64,000 bases of DNA from a virus (IMGVR_UViG_3300003937_000325); one strand, 5' to 3'; shown: positions 17,059 to 64,000, counted from the first letter of the stretch. Program-made: numbers and translations. The notes: a model not told the origin generated them from the sequence alone.

Positions 17059-18522
17059 ATGTCTACTTATAAATCATATTTTAATAGAAACACAACTATT
17101 GTTTCAAATTCATACGCAAATACAGGTAGAAACCCTATATGCGAACTATTCTTTGGTGGGGTAGATAATGTAATTACTCCAAAAGGGTTTAGTCGTTTTT
17201 TATTCGATATTGAATTATCAGGAATAACTGAACAAATCAAACATGGTATTATCTCTACTGGTTGTTCAAAAAGTATGAAACATATTCTCAATATGACTAA
17301 TACTTCATCATTTGATTTGGAATTATTAAATGATACATGGTCTAATGGAAGAAGAAGAGCAACTTCTTTTGATTTAGTATTATTTAGAATACCTAAAGTT
17401 TCAGGAACCACAGGAGATATTCAATCGTGGGATGAAGGTGTTGGATACGATTATTACGATTTTACTGAATTACCTACAGACAAAGCCTACTCAAGTAGAC
17501 CAACTAATTGGTACGAATCTCAAACTATTTCAAATTGGTCAGTACCGGGGGTATACGATAATTTAAATACCAATTCAAGTACAGGGTTAAATTTCTCAGG
17601 TTTAACTATTATTGATACTCAACATTTTGAATTTGGTAATGAAGATATTAAATTTGATATGACTCAAGAGATAAATGATATATTAACGGGGGCGACTACT
17701 GGAGTTACAGGATGGGGAATCGCCTTTTATCCTCAAGTTGAAAATATTACAGGATTAACTGAAAACTACTCGGTAGGGTTTTTTACTACGAATACACAAA
17801 CATTTTATGAACCATACTTAGAAACTACATATGATGATTTAATAGAGGATGATAGAAATATTTTTTATGAAAATAAAGAAAATAAATTATATCTATACAG
17901 TTACCAATTCGGTAATCCTCAAAATTTTGATGAATTACCATCTGTAGATATTACAGATATGAATGGTTCAATATTATATTTAGATTTACCAACCTGTCAA
18001 ATAACTAATGGGGTATATGAAGTTATAGTACCACCATTAACATCATCAAGTATACCATGTATGATGTACGATACTTGGAAAAATTTAAAGATTAATGGAG
18101 TTAATATTTCTAATCAAACTAATGAATTTGTAGTTAATGACTTATCGGAGTTATATCAAATTGGTTCAACAACGAATGACCCTTCATTATATGGTTTTGA
18201 TTTTTTCGGAATTAAACAAGATGAAAAGATATTAGGACCAGATGTACGTAAAGTTAACGTCATAATTAAAAAAGCGTATACTACGAATGAAGTACTTAAT
18301 AAAGTTAACGCCTATTATAGGGTATATGTTAGAGAAGGTAAAACTGAAGTTCAAGTTCAAGATTGGACACAGTTAAATAGAACACCAGATAGTCACTATT
18401 TTATTTTTAATACTGAAGACAAAATACCTAACGAATATTTCATCGATATAAAAGTATTGACGGATAGAGAGATTAATACCTATAAAAGAGAATTAAAATT
18501 TCAAATAGTTAATAGAAAATGA
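17059..18522 (+). CDS. Virion structural protein (beta-rich)
   Basis: 487-aa ORF with a late motif upstream. WDEGVGYD and YEPYLETTYDD segments resemble huge-phage structural proteins. Confidence 0.55.
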   Translation: MSTYKSYFNRNTTIVSNSYANTGRNPICELFFGGVDNVITPKGFSRFLFDIELSGITEQIKHGIISTGCSKSMKHILNMTNTSSFDLELLNDTWSNGRRRATSFDLVLFRIPKVSGTTGDIQSWDEGVGYDYYDFTELPTDKAYSSRPTNWYESQTISNWSVPGVYDNLNTNSSTGLNFSGLTIIDTQHFEFGNEDIKFDMTQEINDILTGATTGVTGWGIAFYPQVENITGLTENYSVGFFTTNTQTFYEPYLETTYDDLIEDDRNIFYENKENKLYLYSYQFGNPQNFDELPSVDITDMNGSILYLDLPTCQITNGVYEVIVPPLTSSSIPCMMYDTWKNLKINGVNISNQTNEFVVNDLSELYQIGSTTNDPSLYGFDFFGIKQDEKILGPDVRKVNVIIKKAYTTNEVLNKVNAYYRVYVREGKTEVQVQDWTQLNRTPDSHYFIFNTEDKIPNEYFIDIKVLTDREINTYKRELKFQIVNRK

Positions 18523-18776
18523 AAAAGGTAACAATCACTGAAAACGAACTGATAGAAATAATCACTAGAGTAATTAGTGAAAAGAAAAAATCTAAAAAGA
18601 AAAAAAAGAAGAGCACTACTTTATGTGCAAGAGGTAAAAACGCGGCGAAAGCTAAATATGATGTTTACCCATCAGCTTACGCTAACGGTTACGCCGTCCA
18701 AGTGTGTAAAGGTAAGATGCCTGGTTTAGACGGTAAAAAAAGATGTTCAGGTAAATATTGTTCGGGTAAAAAATAA
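18519..18776 (+). CDS. Small basic Cys-containing protein (DUF5872-like) with leader
   Basis: AKAKYDVYPSAYANGYAVQVCKG core; N-terminal leader MKKVTITENEL...VISE. Confidence 0.65.
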   Translation: MKKVTITENELIEIITRVISEKKKSKKKKKKSTTLCARGKNAAKAKYDVYPSAYANGYAVQVCKGKMPGLDGKKRCSGKYCSGKK

Positions 18777-18780
18777 TTTG

Positions 18781-18788
18781 TATATTTG
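18781..18788 (+). promoter_or_regulatory. Bacteroidota sigma70 -7 element TAnnTTTG
   Basis: TATATTTG upstream of ORF 18808. Confidence 0.6.
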
Positions 18789-18807
18789 TTATATATAAAA
18801 AAAAATA

Positions 18808-19005
18808 ATGTATCGAAATACAACTTATCATTTTGTTAAAATTGTTAATGGGGAAGAAAAACTCATTATAGAAACCGAGTCTTCTTGTTTAGAAAGGGCT
18901 TTAGATTATTTCTACCTAATGGTACCTAAGGCCTATGGGGATAAGAGTTATACTATTAGAATTAAAAAAGATAATATTAGAAACGTTGCCAGTGAATGGG
19001 ACTAA
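18808..19005 (+). CDS. Hypothetical protein
   Basis: 65-aa ORF preceded by the TATATTTG promoter element. Confidence 0.65.
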   Translation: MYRNTTYHFVKIVNGEEKLIIETESSCLERALDYFYLMVPKAYGDKSYTIRIKKDNIRNVASEWD

Positions 19006-19547
19006 GTAGTTTTTGATATAACCCATTTATACCCTACATCTCCACCATTTAATAACCAATTAACATACTCCATATCTTTTTGTGGTTTTCCTTTAAACGT
19101 TTCATTTAAAGTGATTGTTTCTTTTTTACTGTCAAAAAATTGTTTTAATTCTAATAGTTGGTTTTTAGAAATTACGTTATTCTCAACTATCTTTTGAGTG
19201 ACTCTATTAATTCCTTTAGAGTATGATAAACCCTTTTTCATTTGGCTAATTACCGGCGAAGGGACTCTAATATAATCATTATTTTCTATAATAACGATTT
19301 TAAGGTCACCAGAACCTTTAATTACTCTGTGGTATGTCTCTTTATTAATAATATATTTTTGTCCAACCTTAAGGTCCTGGGGTAACTCCTCATCCATTTG
19401 AAGCTTCCAACCGTCACTTGATTCTACAAATATAATACGGTCGTACTCATCTTTGTGCCATTTTAACTCTTCAGAGTTAACGGATTCATTAAAAACTCTA
19501 CGTTTTTTATTATGTGATAGTTGTGTGTCTGAATATATCATTACCAA
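19002..19547 (-). CDS. Cupin-like domain fused to a small phage domain
   Basis: LKWHKD...YHRVIKG cupin-like His motifs; C-terminal YVNWLLNGGDVGYKW. Confidence 0.55.
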   Translation of the reverse strand: MVMIYSDTQLSHNKKRRVFNESVNSEELKWHKDEYDRIIFVESSDGWKLQMDEELPQDLKVGQKYIINKETYHRVIKGSGDLKIVIIENNDYIRVPSPVISQMKKGLSYSKGINRVTQKIVENNVISKNQLLELKQFFDSKKETITLNETFKGKPQKDMEYVNWLLNGGDVGYKWVISKTT

Positions 19548-21133
19548 AATCTACCTGAGACATTTTTACCAAAATCTTTATGTGCTCTACACGCCCAATA
19601 ACCCGCCTTAGTTTTGTCTTTTTTCTTAGCACACTGATGTCTAGCCGCAAATGATTTACGAGCACCTGGGTCGTTCCATTTAGCTGTCATAACAGGTGAC
19701 CCATAAGAAACTTTTATAACTTTACCCGTTTTGGGGTTTTTAACGTACACATACCACTTTTTAGGTCCACCTGACTTAGGTTTGTTTAAACTAACATCTT
19801 TACCTTTATATTCGGCCTCATCTATTTCATTGGCATATGTTCCATCCCAACTAAAGGATTGTTCGTTTACCATTGGAAAATCAAATGGTAATCTTTCACC
19901 CTTATAATTAAAAAATTTACCTCTATCTGATTCTAATAACTCGATTTCTTCTTCTGACCATTCATTATGACCATCATTATATAACTTACGACCCTCATTA
20001 ATCACATCAAAGTATTTGGGGCTACCATATCTAAAAACATTTTCAGTTAATGAAATACGATTATCAATATGATATTGTAATTCTTCAGATATTACGGTCT
20101 TTTCTTTAGTGTATGACTTTAAAACCGATTCAATTAATTTAGTATCATCGACTAAATCCTCATCCTCTTTTTCGGGTTCACTTAACGGTATGGATACATC
20201 GTCAAAAGAATCTAACGTTTTTGGTTGTAATGGTGGGTCTAATAAAAATCTTTGATTAATCCAACTTCTTAATTCATTTTCAACAAAAAATTCAGGAACA
20301 GGTTTATCATCTGGCTCGTTTGATGCTATTTCTGAAATATGATAAGCGAATTTTAGTTTGTTTTCATTATTCATTAAATTCATTAACCCATCACTTATAA
20401 AAAATATTTGACTAAACGGGTCCACAGGATTAATATCTCCTTCAGCAAAACTAAATACCTTCATAATTGCCTTCGCCCACCAAGATTTATAGGATGACGT
20501 TTCTTTTAATGTTGGACCTATTAGTTTATTAAGTGCTCTAACTGCAGATGTAAACATTCCCGCTACGGCAATTTGTGGTATAAACCAAGGCATTAAACGT
20601 ATAAATGCTTTAAATCCACCTTCACCTACATGTTTAGCTAATCTTTTATTTTTAGCTCCGTTAACGATACTTCTTAATTGTCCAAAAGTAATGGGTCCTT
20701 GAGCGTTACAGAATTTTTTAGCGTCACAAATACTTTTAACTACTTTACTTGAAACATTAACGTCGCCCCCTAATTCCTCTAATACTAAGTTAACTAACTT
20801 ATCTATTGATTCATTTTTCTTTTTATAATTCTTCACTTTAATTCTTGTTGGTTTTTGACCTTTCCCTGTTTGAGTATCTTTCTTTTCTTTTTCTCGTTTC
20901 CTACGACAAGCCGAGTCTTTATCTTTCTGAGACATTTTACCTGCAACACCAGCACCTCGACATACGGGATACGCTCCTTTGTCTGCGTCTCCACGACCAC
21001 ATGGCGGGTGACCACCACCTTTTTTCTTTTTACATATATTAACCCATGGACCCTTTGGTTGTGAGGAACCTTTCTTTTTTTTCTTCTTTCCAAACCAAAC
21101 GGCTAAATCTTCTGTTAAAATATATTCACTCAT
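19541..21133 (-). CDS. Multidomain late protein: N-terminal Cys/basic domain and C-terminal DUF6321-like domain
   Basis: HPPCGRGDADKGAYPVCR at the N-terminus; KVSYGSP...ARKSFAARHQC...AGYWACR at the C-terminus. Confidence 0.65.
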   Translation of the reverse strand: MSEYILTEDLAVWFGKKKKKKGSSQPKGPWVNICKKKKGGGHPPCGRGDADKGAYPVCRGAGVAGKMSQKDKDSACRRKREKEKKDTQTGKGQKPTRIKVKNYKKKNESIDKLVNLVLEELGGDVNVSSKVVKSICDAKKFCNAQGPITFGQLRSIVNGAKNKRLAKHVGEGGFKAFIRLMPWFIPQIAVAGMFTSAVRALNKLIGPTLKETSSYKSWWAKAIMKVFSFAEGDINPVDPFSQIFFISDGLMNLMNNENKLKFAYHISEIASNEPDDKPVPEFFVENELRSWINQRFLLDPPLQPKTLDSFDDVSIPLSEPEKEDEDLVDDTKLIESVLKSYTKEKTVISEELQYHIDNRISLTENVFRYGSPKYFDVINEGRKLYNDGHNEWSEEEIELLESDRGKFFNYKGERLPFDFPMVNEQSFSWDGTYANEIDEAEYKGKDVSLNKPKSGGPKKWYVYVKNPKTGKVIKVSYGSPVMTAKWNDPGARKSFAARHQCAKKKDKTKAGYWACRAHKDFGKNVSGRFW

Positions 21134-21213
21134 ACTTGATTATTACTATAATTTTATTATCTATTAAATAAATATAACGAGAAATAAACTTATTCATTAA
21201 ATAAAAAAACAAA

Positions 21214-21615
21214 ATGGCTAAAGCTAAAAAGACAACGTCTGACGAGACAAAAAAACCAACAGCTAGAAAAACTAGAACTAAAAAAACTGAAACTAAACCT
21301 GTAGAGGAAAAAGTGAGTGAAGTTTTAGAAGGTCAAGGTACCGAACAATCTGTTGATGAACAACCAAAACCTATTGGAACATTATTTGACACTATAAACT
21401 ATAGTAATCTTCAAGATTTAGATAAGTTTGTACAGAACTTAAATGGTGACCAATCATTGTACTGTGTGGTACACGCGGCTAAATCGGCACACAAACGAGG
21501 TGCATTTAGTATTGAAGAGTCTGAAGTGATTTCAAGAGCTATCAGAGTGTTAACTACACCTCCTGAGGATAAAGAAAAATCAGTTCCTGACCCTGAAGTA
21601 CACAAAGCAGATTAA
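21214..21615 (+). CDS. Hypothetical protein
   Basis: 133-aa ORF with a Lys/Thr-rich N-terminus, followed by a terminator. Confidence 0.75.
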   Translation: MAKAKKTTSDETKKPTARKTRTKKTETKPVEEKVSEVLEGQGTEQSVDEQPKPIGTLFDTINYSNLQDLDKFVQNLNGDQSLYCVVHAAKSAHKRGAFSIEESEVISRAIRVLTTPPEDKEKSVPDPEVHKAD

Positions 21616-21622
21616 TTAAATT

Positions 21623-21645
21623 AAAAAGGGACATTGTCCCTTTTT
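21623..21645. terminator. Rho-independent terminator (bidirectional)
   Basis: AAAAAGGGAC-ATT-GTCCCTTTTT perfect inverted repeat. Confidence 0.8.
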
Positions 21646-21665
21646 TTATGCAAAAAAAATACATT

Positions 21666-21866
21666 ATGACTAGAAGTGAAATAAGTACAAAAATTGTGAA
21701 AAATGAAATGATTATGATGAGGGCACGTAATAATGGTCATAAACCAAATGATGGTGATAAATTTCAACCATTAAGAATTGAAAATGAAATTTTAAGATGT
21801 ATGTATTTTGGGGAAGACTCCCCTCATTGTATTAGAAACTATACAAATAAAAAAGGGGACCAATAA
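21666..21866 (+). CDS. Hypothetical protein
   Basis: Track ORF 21648..21866; the more likely start is ATG 21666, after the terminator. Confidence 0.5.
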   Translation: MTRSEISTKIVKNEMIMMRARNNGHKPNDGDKFQPLRIENEILRCMYFGEDSPHCIRNYTNKKGDQ

Positions 21867-21876
21867 GGTCCCCTTT
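21852..21876. terminator. Rho-independent terminator downstream of the major capsid gene
   Basis: AAAGGGGACC-AATAA-GGTCCCCTTT. Confidence 0.8.
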
Positions 21877-21896
21877 AATATTCCTATTAAGATATA

Positions 21897-23639
21897 TTAT
21901 CTTAAAGAGTTCAAGTCAAATGTTCTAACACCATCAACTACGATTCTACCATAGAAACGGTTATTAACCATTTTCTTAGCGTATCTCGTCATAATACCCT
22001 TTATCGGAGTAAAGTTGAACGGGTTATACATTGTAGGTGTCAACTGTAATGGTACATACGGTGCGTAAACGTACCCTGTATCCAATAATGAAGAACCTTT
22101 ATGTCCCAATAAAACAGTGTTTGGTGGGAAGTAAGGGTCTCTGTACACTTGGTATCTACCTGATAATGTACCTACTCTTTCAATACCCATGTTGTATTGG
22201 TCTTGGTCTGGAGCCGCATTTGATACGTGGAAGTATTCCAAGTCATCAAAGATAGCTGAAATTTCCGAAGAAACAACAATCCAGTTAGCTCCACCTCTTA
22301 ATGTAGATTTGTGAATTTGAGCTGAGATTTGGTTAATCGCAGTAATCAATGTCTGATTCCAGTCTTTTTGGTTATAGTTAACTGAACCATTAGACACTCT
22401 CTTCCATCCGTTGTAATCCCAACGTAATGTCCAAGCCGCACCTTTTCTTAAGTCTCTTAAGATTTCACGGTCAATTTCAGCAGCCACTTGTTCTGATAAT
22501 AAAGCTGTTAATTCAGCCTCAGCATCAATGTTATGGAATGCAGAAACATCTTGTGCTAATTCTGGAGACCATTGTGCTCTTAGTTTTCTTTCTGTAACCG
22601 ATACAGTAACTGCATCAAGGTCAAAAGAAACTTCACCCATTTGGTCTTCGAATTCTAAGTCAGCATATACTCTGTAAGTCGCACCAACCGTAGGGTTAGC
22701 CGCGAATGTAGTACCTGTATAACCATCGATTGAACAGTTAGCACATCCAACAACAGGTGTTGAAGTATCAACTGATAAATAAATTACACCGTCAGCAGTA
22801 CAAATATCATCATACTTACCACCTGGTCCTGTATAGTTTCCTGGAGGGAAGTTAGTTTGAGATTCGTTACCGTATTGAACGATACCTTTACCGTACTTCT
22901 GTGTTACCACGTTAAAGTTAAAGTAATCACCACCTATTTGTACTTCTAATGATGCTAAGAAATCCTCAGTATCTTGTTCGTTACCTGTAGGTCCGATTAA
23001 TTTACCTTGACCTGCAGATGCAAATCCTGATAATGCAACTAAAAGTGTTCTTTGGTTACCTGCATAATCACCTGCAGCCGCAACTACTAATGATGAACCA
23101 TCCCATTTTACTAATGTGGTATTAGCAGCAATTCCTGAAAACGCTCCTTTAGAGTAATCGAATAACCCAGCTGGGTCTGAATTCGGTGCAGAACCTTCGT
23201 AAAATCTATCATAAAGGTTTTTACCTGAACCGTAGTTTACTGACGTACCAGAAGGACCATTAGGTGCTCCGAAAGGTGCAACATGTGTTCCATCAGCATT
23301 TCTGTTCTGAATTTTAGGTACAAAGTAGAATAATTTACCGATTGGTAAGTTCATCGCTTGTACTGATACGATATCATTAGCTAATAATTTAGAGAATACT
23401 CTTCTAATGATAGGGAAGACTACTGTTTCAAATGAACCTGAGTTATCTGAAGCAGATGCTTCGTTAATTAAGTGAGACGCTTGGTTTTCATATAATTGTG
23501 CCATGTTCTCTTTTACGTGACCTTTAAGACCCTCTAGGAATCCTAATTTGTCCCATTTGTTGATTGTGTCTTCTTTGATAACTTTAAGGTGTTTTAACCC
23601 AATATTACCAACAAGACCTGATTCTAATAATGCTCCCAT
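21897..23639 (-). CDS. gp23: Major capsid protein, T4 gp23-like
   Basis: VSVQAMNLPIGKLFY, RKLRAQWSPELAQD, AEIDREI, YAPYVPLQ and KGIMTRYA. Confidence 0.97.
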   Translation of the reverse strand: MGALLESGLVGNIGLKHLKVIKEDTINKWDKLGFLEGLKGHVKENMAQLYENQASHLINEASASDNSGSFETVVFPIIRRVFSKLLANDIVSVQAMNLPIGKLFYFVPKIQNRNADGTHVAPFGAPNGPSGTSVNYGSGKNLYDRFYEGSAPNSDPAGLFDYSKGAFSGIAANTTLVKWDGSSLVVAAAGDYAGNQRTLLVALSGFASAGQGKLIGPTGNEQDTEDFLASLEVQIGGDYFNFNVVTQKYGKGIVQYGNESQTNFPPGNYTGPGGKYDDICTADGVIYLSVDTSTPVVGCANCSIDGYTGTTFAANPTVGATYRVYADLEFEDQMGEVSFDLDAVTVSVTERKLRAQWSPELAQDVSAFHNIDAEAELTALLSEQVAAEIDREILRDLRKGAAWTLRWDYNGWKRVSNGSVNYNQKDWNQTLITAINQISAQIHKSTLRGGANWIVVSSEISAIFDDLEYFHVSNAAPDQDQYNMGIERVGTLSGRYQVYRDPYFPPNTVLLGHKGSSLLDTGYVYAPYVPLQLTPTMYNPFNFTPIKGIMTRYAKKMVNNRFYGRIVVDGVRTFDLNSLR

Positions 23640-23663
23640 TTTAGTATTTGTTTTTTTTAAATT

Positions 23664-25196
23664 TTATTTTTGAAGTTTACCCATTAAATCCTTCATTCTC
23701 ATGAACTGAGGATTTTCGTAAGTTTTACTTTCGATAAGATTTGTAGCAGAACCTTTAGATGGTGATTTCTGTACTTTAGATGCAACTGATTCAGTTACAA
23801 CTGCAGAACTTCCTTTCGAGTCTAAATCTTCTTTTACAGTCTTATAAAGACTTTTCGATTCCTTGATTGTTTCAGCAGAATCAAAACGTCTTAAAATGTT
23901 TATTTTTTCTTGTTTTGTTGTCGAATGCTCAGTAAACAGTCGAGTAGCGTATGCTAGATTTGAATTGAAAACAGCAACTTCATTAAGTTTTTCTTTAAAG
24001 ATGTTAAGTGCCTTACGGTACTCTTCATTTTTTTCTCTTAATTGTTTTACTTCTTTCTCAAGTGATTCATTGTACCTTGCTCTATTAGGAATAGAATGTG
24101 GTTTTGAAAGTCCTTTAGATTTATCAGAAGATGCTTTCTGTCCAGCAGCGTGACTTCTCACCATACCTTCTTTAGCCTCTTCGTAATCTTTGTGAGATTT
24201 TGAATCATCACCTTTTTTACCTCCGAACTCTTCATTAGATTCTTCATAATCCTTGTGAGATTTTGAGTCGTCTCCTTTTTTACCTCCATACTCTTCGTAA
24301 TGTTCCTCTTTGTGATGTTCTTCAGCATCGTGGTGTGCGTCTTTTTTCAACTTCTCAATTTGTGAGTAGTCGTCTTCAGCTGCGTCACCATAATAGTTTC
24401 CGTCATCCTCTCCGAGTTCAATTTCATAAACTACTTCGTCTCCTTCGTTAGATTCTTCATAATCCTTGTGAGATTTTGAATCGTCACCTTTCTTACCTCC
24501 GTATTCTTCATTTGATTCTTCATAATCTTTGTGAGATTTTGAATCATCGCCTTTCTTACCTCCGAATTCTTCGTTAGATTCTTCGTAGTCCTTATGAGAT
24601 TTAGAGTCGTCACCTTTCTTACCTCCGAATTCCTCCATTTGAATTTGATATTCAACATCAGCCTCATCATCTTTAAGTGTGATTTCGTCACCGTCTTGTG
24701 TAACAACGATTCCGTCTTCTTCACCCATAGCTTTAAAGACCTTAAGGATTTCTTCGTCAGATGCGCCTGTAAGGTCAAGTGGTAAAAGAATTTCTTCTTC
24801 GTCATCCACTTCTAACTCATCACCTGGTAAATCCATCATAAGCATATCATCAGTATCAATTTCCATATCATCCTCATCCTCATCGGATTCGTCTTCAATG
24901 TCCATGTCAACATCTAGTTCCATGTCGTCTTCAATGTCAAGTTCGTCTTGTTCTTTTGTTTCGTGCTTTACAGATTTCTCCATATCGTCACCTTCTTCCA
25001 TTTTTTCACCTTCCATTGCTTCAACAGACACTTCGTCTTCAATCTCTTCTTCATTTAGAGATTCTTTTACTAATTCACTGATTTCTTCCTTCATAGTAGA
25101 AGCAAGTATTCCTTTTGCATTCTCCGTAACGGCTTCCTTCAAATTTTCCATTTGTAGTAGCGCTTCTTCAACTAAGTTTTGTTTTTTTTGTGCCAT
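23664..25196 (-). CDS. Prohead core/scaffold protein (gp22-like) with internal 21-aa repeats
   Basis: Acidic coiled-coil protein between protease and capsid genes; C-terminal LNEVAVFNSNLAY and RMKDLMG. Confidence 0.8.
   Translation of the reverse strand: MAQKKQNLVEEALLQMENLKEAVTENAKGILASTMKEEISELVKESLNEEEIEDEVSVEAMEGEKMEEGDDMEKSVKHETKEQDELDIEDDMELDVDMDIEDESDEDEDDMEIDTDDMLMMDLPGDELEVDDEEEILLPLDLTGASDEEILKVFKAMGEEDGIVVTQDGDEITLKDDEADVEYQIQMEEFGGKKGDDSKSHKDYEESNEEFGGKKGDDSKSHKDYEESNEEYGGKKGDDSKSHKDYEESNEGDEVVYEIELGEDDGNYYGDAAEDDYSQIEKLKKDAHHDAEEHHKEEHYEEYGGKKGDDSKSHKDYEESNEEFGGKKGDDSKSHKDYEEAKEGMVRSHAAGQKASSDKSKGLSKPHSIPNRARYNESLEKEVKQLREKNEEYRKALNIFKEKLNEVAVFNSNLAYATRLFTEHSTTKQEKINILRRFDSAETIKESKSLYKTVKEDLDSKGSSAVVTESVASKVQKSPSKGSATNLIESKTYENPQFMRMKDLMGKLQK
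24171..24635 (-). repeat. Five 63-bp coding repeats (EE[FY]GGKKGDDSKSHKDYEESN) in blocks of three and two
   Basis: Three units at 24447-24635 and two at 24171-24296, separated by 50 codons; variation is mostly synonymous. Confidence 0.92.
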
Positions 25197-25238
25197 TTTA
25201 GTTATTTTTTTGCAAAATGTTTATTTATAGTTTTTATA

Positions 25239-25245
25239 ATAAATA
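25239..25245 (-). promoter_or_regulatory. Late motif TATTTAT (scaffold and capsid genes)
   Basis: 42 nt before ATG 25196. Confidence 0.55.
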
Positions 25246-25290
25246 TACACGAATTAAAAAAAAATCACTTTATAAAACAATAGGCAAAAA

Positions 25291-25313
25291 AAAATCGGGG
25301 TTTACCCGATTTT
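25291..25313. terminator. Rho-independent terminator
   Basis: AAAATCGGG-GTTTA-CCCGATTTT. Confidence 0.75.
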
Positions 25314-25338
25314 AATTTTATAATATGTATGTGAAGTA

Positions 25339-25548: not shown

Positions 25549-25572
25549 TTTATTTTTTTTTCTTAGTTTTAA

Positions 25573-26295: not shown

Positions 26296-26307
26296 ATCTT
26301 TTATTTT

Positions 26308-26314: not shown

Positions 26315-26322
26315 TGCTACGT

Positions 26323-54547: not shown

Positions 54548-54561
54548 AACTATAAATAGTC

Positions 54562-54879: not shown

Positions 54880-54926
54880 TTCCTTAATTAAATAAATCGT
54901 TTATTTTATATACAAATATCTAAAAA

Positions 54927-55244: not shown

Positions 55245-55247
55245 TAC

Positions 55248-55826: not shown

Positions 55827-55840
55827 TTATAAATTAAAAT

Positions 55841-56557: not shown

Positions 56558-56935
56558 TTCGGGGTGTAAGTCAAAAACCATTTTTATTAATGTTTCTAAA
56601 CAGTAACATTCCTTACCTGATTGGTCGTAAATTAATTGACCATCCACCACACTAATTATTCTAGGGTTAAATTGGTGATGTTTGTAATCCCATATTATAC
56701 TATCGTTCAACCCAAAATATTCCATAATTTTTGGATTTTCATTTATAGTGGTTTGGAAAAATACTACTTCAGGAAATTCGTCATTTAAATTTTTATTTAC
56801 ACTTTCTATTTTATCATTAAAAGGTTTAATACTTAAAGTGGAGTCTTCTTGACCTTCCTTAAATAAAAACCATATAATCTTATGGTGTTTAGTTATGTGT
56901 TCAAATAGATTATTATCGTTTACGTTATATACCAT
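56528..56935 (-). CDS. Thioredoxin-like fold protein without CxxC
   Basis: Alternating beta/alpha pattern with ENPKIMEYFG and PRIISVVDGQL; no WCxxC. Confidence 0.45.
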   Translation of the reverse strand: MVYNVNDNNLFEHITKHHKIIWFLFKEGQEDSTLSIKPFNDKIESVNKNLNDEFPEVVFFQTTINENPKIMEYFGLNDSIIWDYKHHQFNPRIISVVDGQLIYDQSGKECYCLETLIKMVFDLHPELIPIPTSEG

Positions 56936-57534
56936 TATCTAAAAGTTTTTCCCGTTACATTTAAAGTTATTGTACGTTTTACGCCTGAAAGTATAGGTGT
57001 GGTTCTTTGTAGTAAGTAAGATGGGAATATGACCACATCGCCGACACTAAACTTAGGTCGTAATATTTCATAACCACAATTAAACTCAGTATCCCCACCA
57101 TTATATTCTTCTTTAAGAGATAAATGTAGAGTTACTGATAATTTATTAGTATTTGAATTTACTATATCAGAATACCATAAGTAATGACCACTATTATCTG
57201 TATAGGTGTTATACTCCATAAATTGATTAATACCATCCACATTAAAATTCCAACCCATTTCCTGATTAGCACTAACAGATAAATCATAAATTTTATCATA
57301 AATCCATGAAGTCTCATCATTTATTGGTAAGTAACTAACGCTATTTCTTCTTTTCGTATCGACAGAAATATCGGAATAATCCAATTCGTTAATTTCTGAA
57401 TCTAATTTTTCACATATTAATATTATATCATTAATTTCTTTATCATTAAATATTTCTTTATAATAGTAGTAATTTAACATATCGGGGATAGTATCAATAG
57501 TTTCGGTTTTGGCGGTAAAATTTGTTTTAGACAT
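56935..57534 (-). CDS. PKHD-type 2OG-Fe(II) oxygenase homologue with degenerate iron ligands
   Basis: HYLWYSD (normally WHxD), YNGGD, FPSYLLQRTTP (normally HRVTP). Confidence 0.7.
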   Translation of the reverse strand: MSKTNFTAKTETIDTIPDMLNYYYYKEIFNDKEINDIILICEKLDSEINELDYSDISVDTKRRNSVSYLPINDETSWIYDKIYDLSVSANQEMGWNFNVDGINQFMEYNTYTDNSGHYLWYSDIVNSNTNKLSVTLHLSLKEEYNGGDTEFNCGYEILRPKFSVGDVVIFPSYLLQRTTPILSGVKRTITLNVTGKTFR

Positions 57535-57584
57535 AGATTTCTATTATATTATTATTATCTTTATAAAATAAAAGTAAGTGACCT

Positions 57585-57779
57585 ATGACAGATATCAATA
57601 TAAGTAATTATTATTTTAAAGCCGAAAATGTTTTATTTTCATGTACTAACCTATCTCAAGTAAAAAATTCATTAAACTATATTAAACTTTATTATAAGTT
57701 AACGGGAGATTATTGTGGGTACACAATTTTAGTTAGAAAGTATCATAAACTACTAAATGAGTTAACTACGAATGATTAA
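57585..57779 (+). CDS. Hypothetical protein
   Basis: 64-aa ORF overlapping the start of the next gene. Confidence 0.55.
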   Translation: MTDINISNYYFKAENVLFSCTNLSQVKNSLNYIKLYYKLTGDYCGYTILVRKYHKLLNELTTND

Positions 57780-59457
57780 TCAAAAAATAATTGATAGTTT
57801 TTTATTTTATAATGAATTAGATTTACTAGAATTAAGACTTGAAGAGTTGTATGACCATGTTGACTTATTTTTAATTGTAGAGTCAACTAAAACTTTTACG
57901 GGAAAGGATAAACCATTATATTTTAAAGAGAATATTAATCGTTTTTCAAAGTGGAAAGATAAGATAAAACATTATATTGTTAAAGATACTCCAACAATAG
58001 TTAGTGAAAATATAATACAATCCCACACCACTATTGATTCTCAAAAAACTATAGAGTTCTATCGAGAGTCACACCAAAGAAACTCTATAGGTTTAGCACT
58101 AAAAGAATTAAAACTTAATTTTGAAGACATTATCATAGTTTCCGATGTTGATGAATTTCCTAATCATAAAATTTTTAACAAATTATCTGATGATTTACCA
58201 TATGGTCCTGTAATTTTTAAACAAAAATGGTTAGTATGGAATACTAAATTAGAAAAAATGCATTACTGGTTAGGTTCTACCGCTTTTTATTACTCTCATT
58301 ATATATCAAATAATAAAATATTTCAAAAAATTAGAGATGATAGATGGTCAGAGTATGAAGACACCCGTTTCACAATTAAAGAGAATGGGGGGTTCCATTT
58401 CTCTTGGTTTGGGGATTTTAATTTTATAAGACAGAAATTAAATGCTTTCTCACACACCGAACTATTGACTGAATTTTGGGACGATGATAATAACATCACT
58501 AACTTAATTAAAGACATGTACGCGTCGAATGGTATAGATAAAGATGGTACTACCGGTAAACTAAAACCTTTTACTCAAGATAATTATGATTTACCTAAAA
58601 TATGGGATAAGATTAAAAACACAGAAATTAACATTAAACAACCAAAAATTTACGATTGTTTTTTATTTGACCATGAATTAGATATGTTAAATTTGAGGTT
58701 ACATGAGATGAATAACTATGTTGACCATTTCATATTAATCGAATCTAGAAATAGTCATACAGGTAAAGATAAAGAGTTATTTTTTCAAAAACATAAAGGT
58801 TTATTTTCTAAATTTTTACACAAAATTGAACATGTAGTGATTGATTTACCAAATGAAATTTTATATGAACCTCACCCATTAGGTGTAAATGACGAGGATA
58901 ATCTCAATAAATTTAGAGAAAACTATAATAGAAACGCAATAAAAGATACTTTAGAAAGAATAATACCTAACGATGATGATGTAATATTAATCTCAGATGT
59001 GGATGAAATATGGGACAATGACATACTGAGTAGACTTAAAAATAATCAAGTAACTTTTGACACTTTTAAAACTATACTTCAAAGATGGCACTATTGGAAT
59101 TTTAAATGGGATTTTGAAAATATGTTTTGGCCAGGACCCGCCTTTTGTAGATGGTCTTATTTAAAGAGTACAACACCACAAAAAATAAGAAATGTTAGGT
59201 ATGAACAAGAAACACATCTTAATGATATTAATGGGTGGCATTTATCATGGTTTGGTAATGTTGAATGTAATATGCATAAATTAAGAAATACCCATCACCA
59301 AGAATTAAATATACATGATAAAGAATCAGTACGTAATATGATTAATAATGGTTATCTATTTGATGGTGAAAAAATGGTTAGTTTAGAATGGGACTACTAC
59401 CCAAAATATAGACATTTGATTGAAGATGGTAAGTTATATAAAAATATTCATGAATAA
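57772..59457 (+). CDS. Tandem duplicated GT17 (MGAT3-like beta-1,4-GlcNAc transferase) domains
   Basis: Two repeats of D.FLF.NELD.L.LRL.E...VD.F..ES...SDVDE...GWH[FL]SWFG. Confidence 0.82.
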   Translation: MINQKIIDSFLFYNELDLLELRLEELYDHVDLFLIVESTKTFTGKDKPLYFKENINRFSKWKDKIKHYIVKDTPTIVSENIIQSHTTIDSQKTIEFYRESHQRNSIGLALKELKLNFEDIIIVSDVDEFPNHKIFNKLSDDLPYGPVIFKQKWLVWNTKLEKMHYWLGSTAFYYSHYISNNKIFQKIRDDRWSEYEDTRFTIKENGGFHFSWFGDFNFIRQKLNAFSHTELLTEFWDDDNNITNLIKDMYASNGIDKDGTTGKLKPFTQDNYDLPKIWDKIKNTEINIKQPKIYDCFLFDHELDMLNLRLHEMNNYVDHFILIESRNSHTGKDKELFFQKHKGLFSKFLHKIEHVVIDLPNEILYEPHPLGVNDEDNLNKFRENYNRNAIKDTLERIIPNDDDVILISDVDEIWDNDILSRLKNNQVTFDTFKTILQRWHYWNFKWDFENMFWPGPAFCRWSYLKSTTPQKIRNVRYEQETHLNDINGWHLSWFGNVECNMHKLRNTHHQELNIHDKESVRNMINNGYLFDGEKMVSLEWDYYPKYRHLIEDGKLYKNIHE

Positions 59458-59459
59458 AA

Positions 59460-59483
59460 AAAGGACGGTTAAAACCGTCCTTT
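59460..59483. terminator. Bidirectional terminator
   Basis: AAAGGACGGT-TAAA-ACCGTCCTTT. Confidence 0.8.
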
Positions 59484-59515
59484 AATAATTTTCGAATAGA
59501 ACCGAAAGTTATTTA

Positions 59516-60352
59516 TTAATTAAATTTATTAAATCTATTAAACATTTCTCTTATTGTTTTTCTATCCTTATCAAACGACTCATGTAAGTCCTCATCAACT
59601 TCTTCGTACATAGAACCACATTCCACACATTCACCTTCATCAAGTTCAGAACCACACTGTTCACAAGTATCACACTCTTCACCCATCTCTTTTGATAATG
59701 AAAAAATCTTACCAATAGGTTTATCCATTTTAGCTACGGTTACTAAACTTTCGTCAGTCTCACCACAACCCTCACACATTTCTTCATCTATTGTCTTTGA
59801 GTCTGTTTCAACAAAACCTATTGACATGTTGGTAACTTGTTCACCATATACATCAGCATCACCACCCTGTGAATCAAACTCATACGCGGAATCTTCATCA
59901 TTAAATTTTTCTTTTCCGTCCATGTGAGTATCCATCATACTCTCCTCATCATGATATTCTGCGGGTGACATATCACCACCAAACATTTTCATTATGGAAT
60001 CAATATCTAAACCATATGAATCATCAGAATAAGAACCATCAAATTGTTCAGGTCCACCTGAATCATAATCGTAAGCTGAATCCACATTAGATAAATCCAT
60101 GTCGTCAGCCTCCATTTCGTTAGTTTCTTTTTTTGATTTTACCTTCGATTCATTCACATTATGATTACGATAAGTTTTTACGTTACCTTGATTATCAACA
60201 GTGATACCCCCATCGTCTTTAATACTATTATCAACCGTTAATGGTTGTAAATTACTTGGTACGTTACCTGTGGCATAACCATTATAAAATGATGAATGAT
60301 TTTGAAGAATAGAATTTCTTTCTTCGTCTGATATTGTCATATAATTTCTCAT
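59516..60352 (-). CDS. Acidic late protein with CxxC motifs
   Basis: MCEGCG, CDTCEQCG and ECVECG; late motif upstream. Confidence 0.7.
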   Translation of the reverse strand: MRNYMTISDEERNSILQNHSSFYNGYATGNVPSNLQPLTVDNSIKDDGGITVDNQGNVKTYRNHNVNESKVKSKKETNEMEADDMDLSNVDSAYDYDSGGPEQFDGSYSDDSYGLDIDSIMKMFGGDMSPAEYHDEESMMDTHMDGKEKFNDEDSAYEFDSQGGDADVYGEQVTNMSIGFVETDSKTIDEEMCEGCGETDESLVTVAKMDKPIGKIFSLSKEMGEECDTCEQCGSELDEGECVECGSMYEEVDEDLHESFDKDRKTIREMFNRFNKFN

Positions 60353-60439
60353 AATCTTTGTTTTTACTATAAATATGTTGATATATTCATTTCTCGTTTG
60401 ACATAGTAAACGGATTAAGTTATATTTTAAATAAAAACT

Positions 60440-60697
60440 ATGAATAGAGAAGAAATAGATGAAATTGCTGAAGGAGCAATTGTTATGGATGGATTTGATG
60501 ATTGTATCGTTGGAGTTAGCGAAGAATTTGGTCGTGGAACAAGAATTGTGTATTCAAAACAACGTATAATTCAAAAAATGGTAAAAACTGACCTTATGAC
60601 TGAGGAAGAGGCCGATGAATATTTTTATTTTAATATGGTAGGTGGTCATTTCGGTGAAAGAAACCCAATTTTCTTAACTACTTCTATGGCAGTTTAA
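60440..60697 (+). CDS. Hypothetical phage protein
   Basis: GFDDCIVG...EEADEYFYFN..GG.FGERNPIF; TTTG-N19-TATATTTT upstream. Confidence 0.75.
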   Translation: MNREEIDEIAEGAIVMDGFDDCIVGVSEEFGRGTRIVYSKQRIIQKMVKTDLMTEEEADEYFYFNMVGGHFGERNPIFLTTSMAV

Positions 60698-60708
60698 TAT
60701 TTTATCCG

Positions 60709-60716
60709 TATATTTG
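60709..60716 (+). promoter_or_regulatory. Bacteroidota sigma70 -7 element
   Basis: TATATTTG upstream of ORF 60738. Confidence 0.6.
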
Positions 60717-60737
60717 TTTTAACGAAAAAAACACAAT

Positions 60738-61130
60738 ATGTCAGATTTTATAGAACAATTTAAAGCAGATAAAGGGGTGAGGGACTTAATTAAGAGAAAA
60801 GTCTTAACCTCACAAGATTTAAGAGCATCTTGGAGATATGACTCCCACGACTTGAATTTCAGAATTACTCACATTAAGAGACACAGTGAATGGAGTACCT
60901 CATTATTTGTTAATGTTGCGGTTTCTGGTGGATTGAAAGGTTGGGGTTGGAGAACTGATGAAAATGGTCTATGTAATATTAATAATACTCGTGACTTTCG
61001 TAGTGCCATCTCAAGAAATCGTGAGATTAGACGTTTTGTTGAAAAGTCGGTAGCACATGAACTTAAACTTTTTGGGATTAAATCGTGGGAGGTTAATATT
61101 GGTAAATTAAATATTAAAGAATCTATTTAA
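60738..61130 (+). CDS. Hypothetical protein
   Basis: 130-aa ORF after TATATTTG. Confidence 0.7.
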   Translation: MSDFIEQFKADKGVRDLIKRKVLTSQDLRASWRYDSHDLNFRITHIKRHSEWSTSLFVNVAVSGGLKGWGWRTDENGLCNINNTRDFRSAISRNREIRRFVEKSVAHELKLFGIKSWEVNIGKLNIKESI

Positions 61131-61766
61131 TTATCTACCGAACATCATCATATAGTATTTAAGAGCCTTACTAGTTAGGGTTCTTATTTTTTTCTCTAAA
61201 TTTCTATTCGAATAGTCATCGGTCCCTTCGTCTTCAACCATTTTCATAGCCATTCTAATAAATTCATCTCTTGTTTGTTGAGACATCTTCATTAACTCCT
61301 CAACCATGTCTTCATCATATTCTCTACCTGACTTCATTTCTTCAAATTCAATAAATTTTTGAAGATATTTTGGTCCAGAGACTAAAAATTGACCTGATTC
61401 GAACATATTAACTAAACCTGACTCCCTAATCTTACTTAAAAAGTCAAAGAATATTTTTTCATTAGAATACTTAAAAATTTCTTTAAGACTTATTAGGTTA
61501 TCTAAATTTGGGTTATTATGAGCTTCTTTGATATTTGTTTTTAAATCTCTCTCCATCATCCATATGTCCTCTGAAGACACTAAAGATAATGATGAACCAT
61601 TTTCCCATTTAACTGAAATTATCTCCTCACCCTCATCAAACGGGTCTTTAGTGACGTTATTTACCACACCTTTAGTACCACCAGGAACTGGTGAATATGG
61701 GTCTTTCATATAAATTAAAATTATATTATCACCTTCCTTTACACTTGGGTTTACATCTTTAGCCAT
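61131..61766 (-). CDS. DUF4314-like domain fused to a DUF5049-like domain
   Basis: VKEGD.I.LIYMKDPY.PV..GTKG...VKWENGSSLSLV; then IRESGLVNMFE. Confidence 0.6.
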   Translation of the reverse strand: MAKDVNPSVKEGDNIILIYMKDPYSPVPGGTKGVVNNVTKDPFDEGEEIISVKWENGSSLSLVSSEDIWMMERDLKTNIKEAHNNPNLDNLISLKEIFKYSNEKIFFDFLSKIRESGLVNMFESGQFLVSGPKYLQKFIEFEEMKSGREYDEDMVEELMKMSQQTRDEFIRMAMKMVEDEGTDDYSNRNLEKKIRTLTSKALKYYMMMFGR

Positions 61767-61839
61767 TTAAAGTCTTTTAAAATAAATATAACGTATAACA
61801 GTTTAGTATTAGTGACATATTTATAATAAAACATTACAA

Positions 61840-62469
61840 GTGAAAGTTTTAGTTACAGAAGAACAATATCAAGTATTATTAAACGAGAGAATCGGAGAAC
61901 AAGTAACGTCTACCTTAAAAAGGTTAGATAAATTACTTAAAAAAATAATTACAGACGTAAAACAACAATTTGGTATTAGTACTAAATTCGCCCTGACTTA
62001 CGGAGCAGGTATCGGTGCACTTATGGAGCCTGTTGAAAAATACCTTAATGGTCAGTTTACAGGTTTAGAATCTTGGCAGGTATCCTCATTGGTTATTGCC
62101 GCAATATCTATCGTTTATTTTGAAGGTAAAGAGTACGATAAACTCAGAAAAGATATTGAACAACAAGGTTTAGATGATGAATTAAAGTCTGCGGTTAGTA
62201 AAACTCAACAACTTAAAGATAAATTTAGTGCAATGTTAAGCGTTCTTGGTATTAGTGTGTATAGAGGTGGAGATATATTAGCATACACTTTTTTATTACC
62301 TATTTTAGGTATGATTATTAATGTCGCAAATACCTTTGGTTTTGATTCTGTAGAAATGGCAACATTAACAACATCATTAGTTCATTCAGGTCTTATAACT
62401 GTTTCGTCAGTAGTCTTTAGAGACGTAATGCAGAAAATTGCTAGTAAGTTATCTAGTCGACATCGATAA
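61840..62469 (+). CDS. Membrane-helix protein with leader MKVLVTEEQY...LLNE
   Basis: GTG start; several hydrophobic segments; late motif upstream. Confidence 0.7.
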   Translation: MKVLVTEEQYQVLLNERIGEQVTSTLKRLDKLLKKIITDVKQQFGISTKFALTYGAGIGALMEPVEKYLNGQFTGLESWQVSSLVIAAISIVYFEGKEYDKLRKDIEQQGLDDELKSAVSKTQQLKDKFSAMLSVLGISVYRGGDILAYTFLLPILGMIINVANTFGFDSVEMATLTTSLVHSGLITVSSVVFRDVMQKIASKLSSRHR

Positions 62470-62785
62470 AATTAAAATCTTTATCGACCTCATAGTAGTG
62501 TACACTCATTGAGTAGTATAGGTCTTTAACTTTATTTTTTTCTCTTAGTTTACCAATCTGTTTTCTTTTGTCAGATTCACCCATCATTATACCGATAACT
62601 TTTTTACCTTTTGGTGGTTTATATTCAGTCGGTAAACTAACAGTGACTGGTACTGGTTTAATAAAATCTAAAATACTATTAATTAATTTTGTTTTTGTAC
62701 CTGTACGGTGAAGAGAGTACTCTTTACAGATTAGTTTAATTTCAACTAATGATAACTTCTTTAAATTTTCTCGCGTGTGTTCCAT
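62453..62785 (-). CDS. SAP/HeH-like DNA-binding domain protein
   Basis: LKKLSLVEIKLICKEYSLHRTGTKTKLINSI. Confidence 0.6.
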   Translation of the reverse strand: MEHTRENLKKLSLVEIKLICKEYSLHRTGTKTKLINSILDFIKPVPVTVSLPTEYKPPKGKKVIGIMMGESDKRKQIGKLREKNKVKDLYYSMSVHYYEVDKDFNFIDVD

Positions 62786-62789
62786 ATAA

Positions 62790-62797
62790 CAAAGATA
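62790..62797 (-). promoter_or_regulatory. Bacteroidota sigma70 -7 element
   Basis: TATCTTTG (minus strand) upstream of ORF 62785. Confidence 0.55.
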
Positions 62798-62832
62798 CGG
62801 ATTTTATCTTAATAAAAAAAATGCAATATAAT

Positions 62833-63300
62833 TTAATCGGGAATATGTACTATATTTTTTACACTAAACCAATTATATTCGAAACCATATTTTGCTTTAG
62901 CATTATATTCATCATTGTGATTAGTCCAATCAAAACTACATGAACTTAAAAAACCAACCATATCATCACCCTCATCATCGGAGGTTTTAGTTACAAATTC
63001 CATATTTTCATTTAAGTGATAATCACCAAATGTATTTATCACTGCGGATAAAATTTTATCTAATTCTTTACATAATGGTCCGTGGTCTGGGTCATCTACC
63101 ATGAAAGGAATTTCAACTTCAAAATAAACTGTACCGTTTTGATTAGCACCATATATTTTAGTTATTAAATTTGTCGCTTTTAATTTCCTAAGTAGTGGGG
63201 ATTTACTTTCAACTACGTACAATAGTATTTGTACGGCTCTTCTAGCTACACCTCTAAATTCTTCTTCACTTTTAAATTCCATATCTTTTTTCGTATTCAT
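62833..63300 (-). CDS. Hypothetical protein
   Basis: 155-aa ORF. Confidence 0.7.
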   Translation of the reverse strand: MNTKKDMEFKSEEEFRGVARRAVQILLYVVESKSPLLRKLKATNLITKIYGANQNGTVYFEVEIPFMVDDPDHGPLCKELDKILSAVINTFGDYHLNENMEFVTKTSDDEGDDMVGFLSSCSFDWTNHNDEYNAKAKYGFEYNWFSVKNIVHIPD

Positions 63301-64000
63301 CAGATAAGAAAGAGATTAACTCTAACGAATCTTTATCATTTAGTTGATGTGCGTACTGACTTCTTTTAAACCAATCACCTATAACTTGTTTAATTGGTTG
63401 ATTACGAAGTTTAGCGACTCTTATAATACCTTTAAGTTCTGCAGGTATTTCGTGACTTTGTTTATAATACTCTTTACCTGTTGGGTCTTCATCCCCCTCT
63501 TCTTTAAAATGTATTTCATTATCAGGTCTCATATAATTTTCTTGAAATATATGTTCTATTTCGTGAGCAACTACGTCATTTATATCTGCAATTAAATCGT
63601 ACATAAGTGAAGGGTAATGTTCAGGATTAATAATTATTAGTACTGAAATTGTATCTCCGTCAGACATTAATGCCCCATTAATCATGTAGGGTTCTTTTAT
63701 ACTATAATCGGCATTGTAAGTTAATTCTATGGAGAATGACGGTATATTGTACGACCTACTTATGTTTAACTTTTTAAAGTCATTATCAAAGTCATATTCA
63801 ATTTCATTCGTTTCAGTGATGTCTTCAGGTAAAAAGTATTCACCATAATTTTCACTTTTAACAATATTTGTTATGTCTCTAACTATACGTCTAATTGGTT
63901 CATTAATACCCTTAGCCTCATTTATGATGTTAGACTCATTGATAGATTCTTTAACAGTTAATAGTAACTCATTTGTAATAGTTTCGGGATTTTCGTCTTC
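63272..64000 (-). CDS. HExxH zincin-like protein, 5'-truncated at the window end
   Basis: Frame is open from 64000 (EDENPETITNELLLTVKESINESNIINEAKG...) into track ORF 63272..63685; VVAHEIEHIFQ...SHEIPAE. Confidence 0.75.
   Translation of the reverse strand, partial: EDENPETITNELLLTVKESINESNIINEAKGINEPIRRIVRDITNIVKSENYGEYFLPEDITETNEIEYDFDNDFKKLNISRSYNIPSFSIELTYNADYSIKEPYMINGALMSDGDTISVLIIINPEHYPSLMYDLIADINDVVAHEIEHIFQENYMRPDNEIHFKEEGDEDPTGKEYYKQSHEIPAELKGIIRVAKLRNQPIKQVIGDWFKRSQYAHQLNDKDSLELISFLSDEYEKRYGI

Follow-up and report, generated by a model that had tools for sequence, protein, structure and literature searches.

Leader peptides shared by unrelated proteins of a large uncultured phage: candidate capsid-targeting propeptides

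Described head-loading systems and the leaders found here

Mullaney and Black reportedly described in 1996 a capsid targeting sequence (CTS) on the proteins IPI, IPII, IPIII and Alt of phage T4. The internal proteins of T4 share just this sequence of 10–19 residues, which is removed by the protease gp21 (PMC9026906, PMC3012670). Here a stretch of 64,000 nucleotides (the window, meaning the whole stretch that was analysed), bases 30135–94134 of the 198,834-bp phage contig IMGVR_UViG_3300003937_000325, was examined together with the rest of the contig for recurring N-terminal leaders. Three main types of leader were found on otherwise unrelated proteins, and these leaders are real, abundant and modular. 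By analogy they may be capsid-targeting propeptides of the T4 kind used at a larger scale. This reading was given a probability of roughly 0.5, and the indirect evidence as a whole appears to agree better with it than with each of its rivals. Coordinates prefixed w are window positions; those marked ‘genome’ are positions on the whole contig.

The likeness to the T4 CTS lies in a short N-terminal peptide common to unrelated proteins and ending in hydrophobic-x-Glu, which is the (L/I)-x-E rule of gp21. The phage also encodes a gp21-type protease, the leader end matches the site in its capsid propeptide, and some of the cargo is Lys-rich and basic. The T4 sequence MKTYQEFIAE resembles the leaders in pattern only (M-K, hydrophobic positions and a terminal Glu); it has no detectable homology to them and is too short for a test of homology, while a leader of the MIKLKDILSE type fits its register with hydrophobic residues at 4, 7 and 8 and Glu at 10 (PMC9026906). 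Unlike the T4 CTS, the leaders are 15–30 residues long, carry two conserved Glu motifs and come in at least three interchangeable types. Their genes, some dispersed over the genome and some in arrays, number at least 17 in a genome that is 66% complete, as against a handful in T4. The cargo here includes peptidoglycan-binding, lysozyme and membrane-hairpin proteins.

In phages phiKZ, 201phi2-1 and SPN3US the propeptides of head and ejection proteins are cut by gp21-like proteases (PMC5694885, PMC10052503), and one such ejection protein, SPN3US gp47, begins with a transmembrane domain once it has been processed (PMC5694885). The similarity is that many proteins internal to the head are cut after Glu by an S77-type protease, their propeptides having multiple sites, and gp47 is a precedent for cargo of the membrane type. 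However, most of those propeptides exceed 100 residues; they have no single shared sequence and are cut at S/A/G-x-E, whereas the leaders described here are short and highly conserved with I, L or V at P3. The Dar system of phage P1 has an N-terminal packaging signal on DarB and an ordered loading of the head (PMC9024508, PMC12810830). There too an N-terminal segment sends anti-host proteins into the capsid for injection, but loading goes through a hierarchy of partners (Hdf, DarA) and no short leader is common to many cargos. A constant N-terminal module joined to exchangeable C-terminal effectors is also known from the anchors of tailspikes and tail fibres and from the trafficking domains of polymorphic toxins. 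Unlike the leaders, these modules are folded domains of at least 100 residues, and no head protease removes them. The principle is already known from T4 and the giant phages; the system described here stands out for its scale, for having three or more leader types that can replace one another, for the two sites in the leader and for cargo directed at the envelope. A description of the leader motif was not found in the literature.

Leader families as shared peptides

Gene calling was run over the whole 198.8-kb genome and leader hidden Markov models (HMMs) were searched against all six frames. Seventeen leader genes were found, eight of type A, five of type B and four of type C. Eight lie in the window and nine outside it, namely type A genes at genome 121209, 123108, 130210 and 148237, type B genes at genome 113752 and 9608 and type C genes at genome 127812, 128342 and 155514. 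The long form of type A has the consensus M-K-K-[IV]-[IV]-[RK]-L-T-E-S-D-L-x-R-I-V-K-R-V-I-x-E-Q and the short subtype reads M-K-[IV]-[IV]-[IV]-T-E-x-Q-[LY]-x-x-L-x-x-E. The L, T, E and final E of type A are near-invariant and provide two matches to (L/I)-x-E. Type B follows [LI]-I-x-E-x-x-R-I-x-x-[LI]-M-G... and ends in [IL]-x-E-[QG], and type C follows I-[SN]-E-[SE]-E-x-N-R-I-L-x-L-H-E-S..., with some copies extended to ...L-x-E-Q. All peptides quoted in the original prediction, which was made by reading the window by itself, were found at their positions. Its types A and B were confirmed by profiles; type C, at w60352, had been missed and was absent from its list.

The independent type A profile was built from 130 metagenomic leaders, none from this genome. 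It recovered the long type A genes of the genome with E values from 8.5e-15 to 4.5e-3 and missed those at w26709 and w61840. A type B profile made from the three window genes and their homologs found 4–6 further copies in two related contigs (E down to 2.5e-6), and a type C profile found copies in related contigs with E = 5e-7. Once their first 35 residues had been removed, the type A proteins had no mutual BLAST similarity, which agrees with the earlier claim that the downstream domains are unrelated and disposes of whole-gene paralogy as the source of the leaders. Codons vary freely among leader copies and the nucleotide identity between near-identical peptides is 60–83%, which rules against an element acting at the nucleotide level such as a translation or mRNA signal. 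Since the trimmed bodies are unrelated and the codons differ, the shared element is a peptide and not the result of recent duplication.

Among 1.84 billion representative proteins the type A profile matched 2334 clusters at E ≤ 1e-3. The match begins within the first six residues in 138 of the 145 top database matches, and protein lengths among the top matches run from about 36 to 370 aa. Chance, ordinary paralogy or the compositional bias of an AT-rich genome is therefore a very improbable origin, refuted for types A, B and C by the unrelated trimmed bodies, the E values of the independent profiles and the number of clusters. It holds for the short forms only. Of all proteins, 49% have the bare motif [ILV]-x-E among their first 30 residues, compared with 38–43% in internal control windows, and the frequency of this motif in late-type and other genes (57% vs 46%, p = 0.15) does not differ. 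A stricter motif, hydrophobic-hydrophobic-x-Glu, is found at 21% of N-termini vs 8–12% and is enriched in genes behind the late-type motif TATTTAT (35% vs 16%, p = 0.002).

Because the bare motif is near chance, the short forms MKFSTLLNE, MSEYILTE, MKQLNE and MGALLE, which had been listed as leaders, carry no statistical weight. MSEYILTE starts a Lys/Cys-rich protein of 530 aa (w19541..21133, minus strand) with a match to PHROG 7595 at its C-terminus; it remains a candidate only, with its motif at chance level. MKFSTLLNE starts a 638-aa protein (w41067..42983, minus strand) that BLAST of the trimmed proteins links to the genome genes 159149, 160579 and 187034. It thus heads a four-gene family of whole-protein paralogs and was rejected as a leader family. 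The motif VKESINESNIINEA, taken to be N-terminal in an open reading frame (ORF) cut off by the window edge (w63272..64000, minus strand), lies internally at about residues 58–72 of a 285-aa protein with an HEIEH motif, whose true start is beyond the window end at w64129.

The contig, from a marine giant phage whose host is probably a marine member of Bacteroidota, has a GC content of about 31%; its completeness was put at 66% by CheckV, and complete relatives are about 290–320 kb in size. The nearest named phages by capsid protein are Flavobacterium phage immuto, Microcystis phage Mel-JY01 and an uncultured 484-kb phage, with an identity of just 42–45%; leaders of types A, B and C were not found in immuto or Mel-JY01. 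The clade is abundant in metagenomes, its protease being found on at least 599 IMG/VR contigs. Related contigs each have about 10 type A, 4–6 type B and 3 type C leaders. A scan of relatives with leader HMMs, which had been proposed as a check, gave 12–20 type A copies in each complete relative. Cellular genomes gave just 11 type A matches in 185,579 species genomes. When near-complete genomes of 274–322 kb were chosen by the leader alone, eight of the nine encoded an S77 protease. The ninth (G014) is rich in leaders and has no S77 gene, but it is uninformative on this link because no gp23-type capsid gene could be detected in it either.

Two further contigs extend the distribution. An unrelated 165-kb JGI contig has at least eight small genes with canonical type A leaders in a 10-kb array (L091:9683-14000), and two neighbouring genes of the array have an identical upstream junction of about 38 nt, which suggests cassette-like exchange. 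A 64-kb contig (L093) of the Prochlorococcus single-cell assembly AG-409-L21 encodes an S77 protease and also has a gene whose leader resembles type A. This contig is probably a T4-like cyanophage caught in the cell, and the leader family would therefore reach the cyanophages.

Cargo, leader exchange and the head module

The cargo in the window comprises poly-Lys/Cys-rich, OmpA-like, hairpin plus PG_binding_1, HELVH-motif, hydrophobic-segment and zinc-ribbon-like proteins, together with two proteins without a lead. The claims made for OmpA-like, PG_binding_1 and hairpin proteins, Lys/Cys-rich mini-domains and HExxH motifs were upheld, and for the supposed HExxH protease there is only a weak M78/SprT-like lead.

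The OmpA-like protein (w43577..44827, minus strand, 416 aa) has a long type A leader recognised by the independent profile at E = 6e-10. Its leader helix and a disordered linker precede an OmpA-like peptidoglycan-binding domain that is flanked by a beta domain on each side, the second of these being C-terminal. In the AlphaFold2 model, with a mean predicted local distance difference test score (pLDDT) of 76, the helix spans residues 10–25 and the linker at 24–36 has pLDDT below 50. The top Foldseek matches were all OmpA/MotB/Pal-type domains (template modelling score to target ∼0.55–0.61, E ∼3e-3). Among its 119 homologs the type A leader is kept down to about 40% identity, and distant homologs have a type B or type C leader on the same body. 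In the other long type A protein of the window (w18519..18776, plus strand, 85 aa) the leader MKKVTITENELIEIITRVISE precedes a poly-Lys tract and then a mini-domain rich in Cys. The independent profile gave E = 6e-7 and the leader is kept in the orthologs of relatives. PHROG 27331 matches at residues 34–74 and the isoelectric point of the remainder is 10.1. This gene overlaps the stop codon of a TATTTAT-driven gene upstream.

Two window genes have the short type A leader, both with TATTTAT at −22. The 128-aa protein at w26323..26709 (minus strand) starts MKVVINESQLLRLFE|A and was found with the seed HMM. Its leader alone is not significant with the independent profiles (E = 2.1) and is supported by orthologs that keep it, with the starts MKVIITENQLLRLFE and (GTG)KIKITESQL.., some having GTG start codons. 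This gene is an accessory insertion, found in about 15 of 80 related head operons, that separates the protease gene from a conserved gene of the operon encoding 145 aa. The 209-aa protein at w61840..62469 (plus strand) has a GTG start and begins (M)KVLVTEEQYQVLLNE; an independent short-form profile gave E = 4e-5, and there are hydrophobic segments in the remainder, one at 144–164.

The three type B genes of the window lie next to each other on the minus strand. The 577-aa protein at w51030..52763 has a long type B leader starting ..KIITEELKQIVVLMNYDRSKTLME|Q, with TATTTAT at −13. It has a PG_binding_1 domain (Pfam E = 7.7e-6, residues 524–566), a C-terminus matching endolysin-type PHROGs and a Gly/Ala-rich hydrophobic hairpin with hydrophobic segments at 159–208. 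Directly downstream of this TATTTAT-driven gene is that of a mostly helical 624-aa protein (w49166..51040) starting MKNKKIITEVSRIQDIMGLKFIINE|S, recognised by alignment and HMM, for which no Pfam, PHROG or Atlas match was found. The 223-aa protein with the HELVH motif (w52779..53450) starts MGHLINEISRIKGIMGIISE|G (HMM E = 2.9e-9; TATTTAT at −13). Its HExxH is at residue 100, and the weak Atlas lead is to Peptidase_M78/IrrE- or SprT-like clusters with a score of about 0.9. The type C protein of the window (w59516..60352, minus strand, 278 aa) starts MRNYMTISDEERNSILQNH (alignment and HMM E = 1.6e-10; TATTTAT at −23) and is acidic with Cys-rich zinc-ribbon-like motifs.

Outside the window the cargo includes PG_binding_1, Phage_lysozyme and Phage_L5_gp82 domains. 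Few of the database cargos have a Pfam family, and among these are PG_binding_1, Phage_lysozyme, OmpA and GNAT. One cargo outside the window is a GH24 lysozyme with a type C leader at genome 154945-155514. The leaders on its homologs are of type C, short type A, the MKLIEIVNEILTE type or the MIKLKDILSE type, or are missing altogether, in which case the proteins are canonical 142-aa endolysins. Lysozyme searches of GenBank phages returned leaderless endolysins only. Every leader type ends in hydrophobic-hydrophobic-x-Glu, and on the lysozymes these ends align in one block 3–12 residues before a conserved junction. The motif is present in 53 of the 55 lysozyme extensions vs 13 expected after shuffling (maximum 25 in 500 shuffles), though the 55 extensions are mutually related and this count is not a probability. 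Because unlike leaders on the same lysozyme share just this ending, the Glu motif is probably the functional common denominator of the leader types, and the lysozyme block appears to be the strongest argument for it.

The head genes are on the minus strand in the order large terminase (w30165-31937), portal, two conserved unknowns, protease, a 69-aa gene, the scaffold-position gene and capsid. Conserved proteins of this operon are encoded at w26734-27171, w27505-28239 and w25339-25548. The portal protein (w28260..30116) is gp20-like, matching the PHROG 213 portal family at E = 2.6e-66, and has TATTTAT at −20. The prohead serine protease predicted at w25573 (w25573..26295) proved to be of the T4 gp21 type, Pfam Peptidase_S77 (PF03420, E = 1.6e-23). 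It aligned with the T4 gp21 structure (PDB 5JBL) at E = 1.6e-15, and in this alignment its His (NHP) and Ser (GVSSRG) coincide with the catalytic positions of gp21. It is the presumed enzyme for processing the leaders. The gp23-type major capsid protein (w21897..23639), identified by tblastn and PDB matches to T4 gp23, has a candidate maturation site LINE|A at residues 57–61 (w23457-23471). LINE is invariant across the capsid proteins of 21 distinct relatives and the stretch directly after it is variable, resembling the E65|A66 site at which T4 gp23 is cleaved. The acidic 510-aa protein at w23664..25196 is a putative scaffold from its composition and its gp22 position between the protease and capsid genes, and it is a possible docking partner for the leaders; no Pfam or PHROG match was found for it.

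The motif TATTTAT is found within 70 nt upstream of 68 of the 256 genes of the genome, among them the genes of the portal, the protease and the scaffold and those of large tail or fibre proteins. Of the 17 leader genes, 11 have the motif directly upstream (Fisher p = 7e-4) and the other six directly follow a gene bearing it, so that all 17 leader genes are in TATTTAT units; the original prediction had placed nearly all of its leaders under this motif.

Some neighbouring features were also noted. A phage transfer-messenger RNA (tmRNA) at w44915-45304 (plus strand), matched over its full length by Rfam RF00023 (84.7 bits, E = 4.7e-33) and missed by ARAGORN, adjoins the type A OmpA-like gene; small ORFs called in this gap are spurious. 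A two-ring ATPase of the ClpB/ClpC type (w37877-39895, plus strand) has AAA_2, AAA_lid_9 and ClpB_D2-small domains and a UVR motif. The two genes suggest a protein quality-control or unfolding system run by the phage; any tie between them and the leaders is pure speculation. A family 25 glycosyltransferase of the lipopolysaccharide type (w46193-46942, minus strand) sits amid the leader genes and adds to the large set of glycan genes at the window start. Two CAP/SCP-domain proteins with classical signal peptides (w43049-43564 and genome 121288-121791, both on the plus strand) each have a gene adjoining a type A leader gene (w43577-44827 and genome 121795-123108), the bodies of these two leader proteins being unrelated. 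An Fe/Mn superoxide dismutase (genome 11969-13531, plus strand) is extended by 46 aa at its N-terminus and by about 280 residues at its C-terminus. After its enzyme domain there is a weak type-A-like stretch, KKLTETKIVKSIISE (E = 0.09), and the protein is possibly a protease-punctuated fusion.

Capsid targeting weighed against other functions

If the leaders act as the T4 CTS does, a late promoter containing TATTTAT would express the cargo gene along with the head genes, and the N-terminal amphipathic helix, whether of type A, B or C, would dock the cargo on the scaffolding core of the assembling prohead. The gp21-type protease would then cut after Glu in the [ILV]-[TN]-E and hydrophobic-hydrophobic-x-Glu motifs of the leader, releasing the mature cargo within the head, and the cargo would leave with the DNA at infection. 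Such cargo would include the poly-Lys basic protein and the lysozyme, PG-binding, OmpA-like, hydrophobic-hairpin and HExxH proteins. The docking, cleavage, packaging and ejection of the cargo are steps that we infer. The earlier proposal of portable head-loading leaders is supported by the portability of the leaders, the protease, the motif with which they end, the late-type motif they share with head genes and the capsid site. It is weakened by the chance level of the short forms, the lack of motif enrichment in the putative scaffold, the accessory nature of the gene beside the protease and the gut motif described below.

Several observations weigh against capsid targeting. In 106 of 135 leaders the final Glu is followed by Gln, vs Ala at T4 sites and at the capsid site of this phage; this Gln may cyclise to pyroglutamate after the cut and protect the mature cargo. 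All 22 residues of the leader are conserved, far beyond what a cleavage site needs. The hydrophobic-hydrophobic-x-Glu motif is not enriched in the putative scaffold, and the type A gene beside the protease was rejected as the equivalent of T4 gp68 since in most relatives it is the conserved 145-aa gene that abuts the protease. TATTTAT was assigned as a putative late-type promoter from the genes it precedes. A second, internal leader copy is present in about a third of the best database matches, and A-like copies elsewhere in this genome are internal in one case (genome gene 193307-194383) and C-terminal in another (a 47-aa ORF). The near-complete genomes selected by their leaders are probably one clade, so the association of leader and S77 protease is not independent of ancestry. 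Searching GenBank phages by tblastn with the leader, the OmpA-like cargo and the gut variant described next gave no match, and no cultured relative carrying leaders was found in the GenBank phage searches. Finally, a family of genes in gut metagenomes is headed by a motif identical to the leader at 13 of 15 positions, MKKVIRLTESDLH.IVKESV.., and the metagenome-assembled genomes (MAGs) holding this family have no S77 protease.

The gut family has about 100 conserved N-terminal residues and variable C-termini (L100:7995-8594 and L103:581-1489, on Prevotellaceae-like contigs), and it had no Pfam match. In two independent contexts its gene is tail-to-tail with an IS1595 (ISXO2-like) transposase, and one of these contexts adjoins large genes that look SusC/SusD-like from their length and signal peptides alone. 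Given that a near-identical motif is present in MAGs without S77, the first helix of the leader is not exclusive to S77 phages; either it was borrowed or it has a more general binding role. The leader might then be a recognition tag for a partner outside the virion, such as a modifying enzyme, a chaperone or the ClpB/ClpC-like unfoldase at w37877-39895, or an interaction helix of mobile-element proteins, with the Glu motifs a coincidence. The IS1595-associated genes of these gut Bacteroidales genomes speak for this, as do the internal and tandem leader copies and the presence in the phage of a two-ring Clp-type ATPase and a tmRNA. Against it, no candidate partner gene was identified, unrelated leader types swap on the same cargo, which is a poor fit to a single partner, and the long conserved region of the gut family suggests that it may be a distinct entity sharing the first helix only. 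A tag for a radical-SAM enzyme in particular was rejected, as PF04055 had no match in this 66%-complete genome while the controls matched in 14 of 14 cases. Recognition by a partner outside the virion is considered unlikely, though it retains appreciable weight.

It is rather unlikely that the leader is a docking helix for another part of the virion (the tail lumen, baseplate, neck or capsid surface), comparable to the constant N-terminal anchor of tailspikes whose C-terminal domains vary, or that it stays uncleaved. T4 carries an envelope-acting activity in its baseplate, and here too much of the cargo acts on the envelope (the lysozyme, two PG_binding_1 proteins, the OmpA-like protein and the hydrophobic hairpins). 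The promoter motif of the leader genes is found not only at head genes but also at those of the tail and baseplate, and conservation extends over the entire helix and not the Glu sites alone. However, unlike leader types share just the hydrophobic-hydrophobic-x-Glu end, which points to a protease motif and not to one docking surface. There is also cargo with no link to the envelope (the poly-Lys basic, acidic zinc-ribbon and L5 gp82-like proteins), and a helix of 15–25 residues is a small anchor for an external part. The over-representation of envelope-directed proteins (PG_binding_1, Phage_lysozyme, OmpA) among the few annotated cargos, in this genome and in the database, could instead indicate a non-classical export or latency signal for lysis or envelope proteins late in infection. 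This is improbable, since the leaders are charged amphipathic helices without the hydrophobic core of Sec, lipoprotein or signal-anchor-release (SAR) signals. No hydrophobic segment was found in the first 25 residues of 16 of the 17 leader proteins, the exception being a type B protein (genome 113752-114522) with such a segment at residues 18–37, beginning where the leader ends. With just one in 17 having a hydrophobic stretch near the leader, a signal-peptide or SAR reading was rejected. True signal peptides are found on other genes of the genome, such as the one at w43049-43564 for a CAP-domain protein. An Amidase_2 without a leader is a candidate endolysin, and many cargos are not envelope proteins.

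Should capsid targeting be correct, the three-protein CTS of T4 would have grown into a modular code in which dozens of genes take part and several leader types are equivalent. A bolder form of the proposal is that interchangeable, lineage-specific leaders make up a general loading code of marine T4-related giant phages, by which each virion would carry 20–40 injected proteins including enzymes and binders that act in the periplasm, namely a lysozyme, OmpA-like and PG-binding proteins and membrane hairpins; this is tentative and on balance doubtful. If true, proteins stored in the capsid of a contractile-tailed phage would reach not only the cytoplasm but also the cell envelope, and the ‘injectome’ of thousands of uncultured phages could be read from sequence with leader HMMs. 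Were the recognition tag or another of the rival functions correct, the leader would be among the most widespread unannotated N-terminal motifs of phage and mobile-element proteins. As capsid-loading tags, the leaders would make it possible to flag, with simple profiles, the proteins delivered by the virion in thousands of genomes of uncultured marine phages, and would provide short natural tags for loading foreign proteins into the capsids of non-model phages. Most of the proteins marked by type A have no known function, and they would then be candidates for early anti-defence or envelope-breaching factors.

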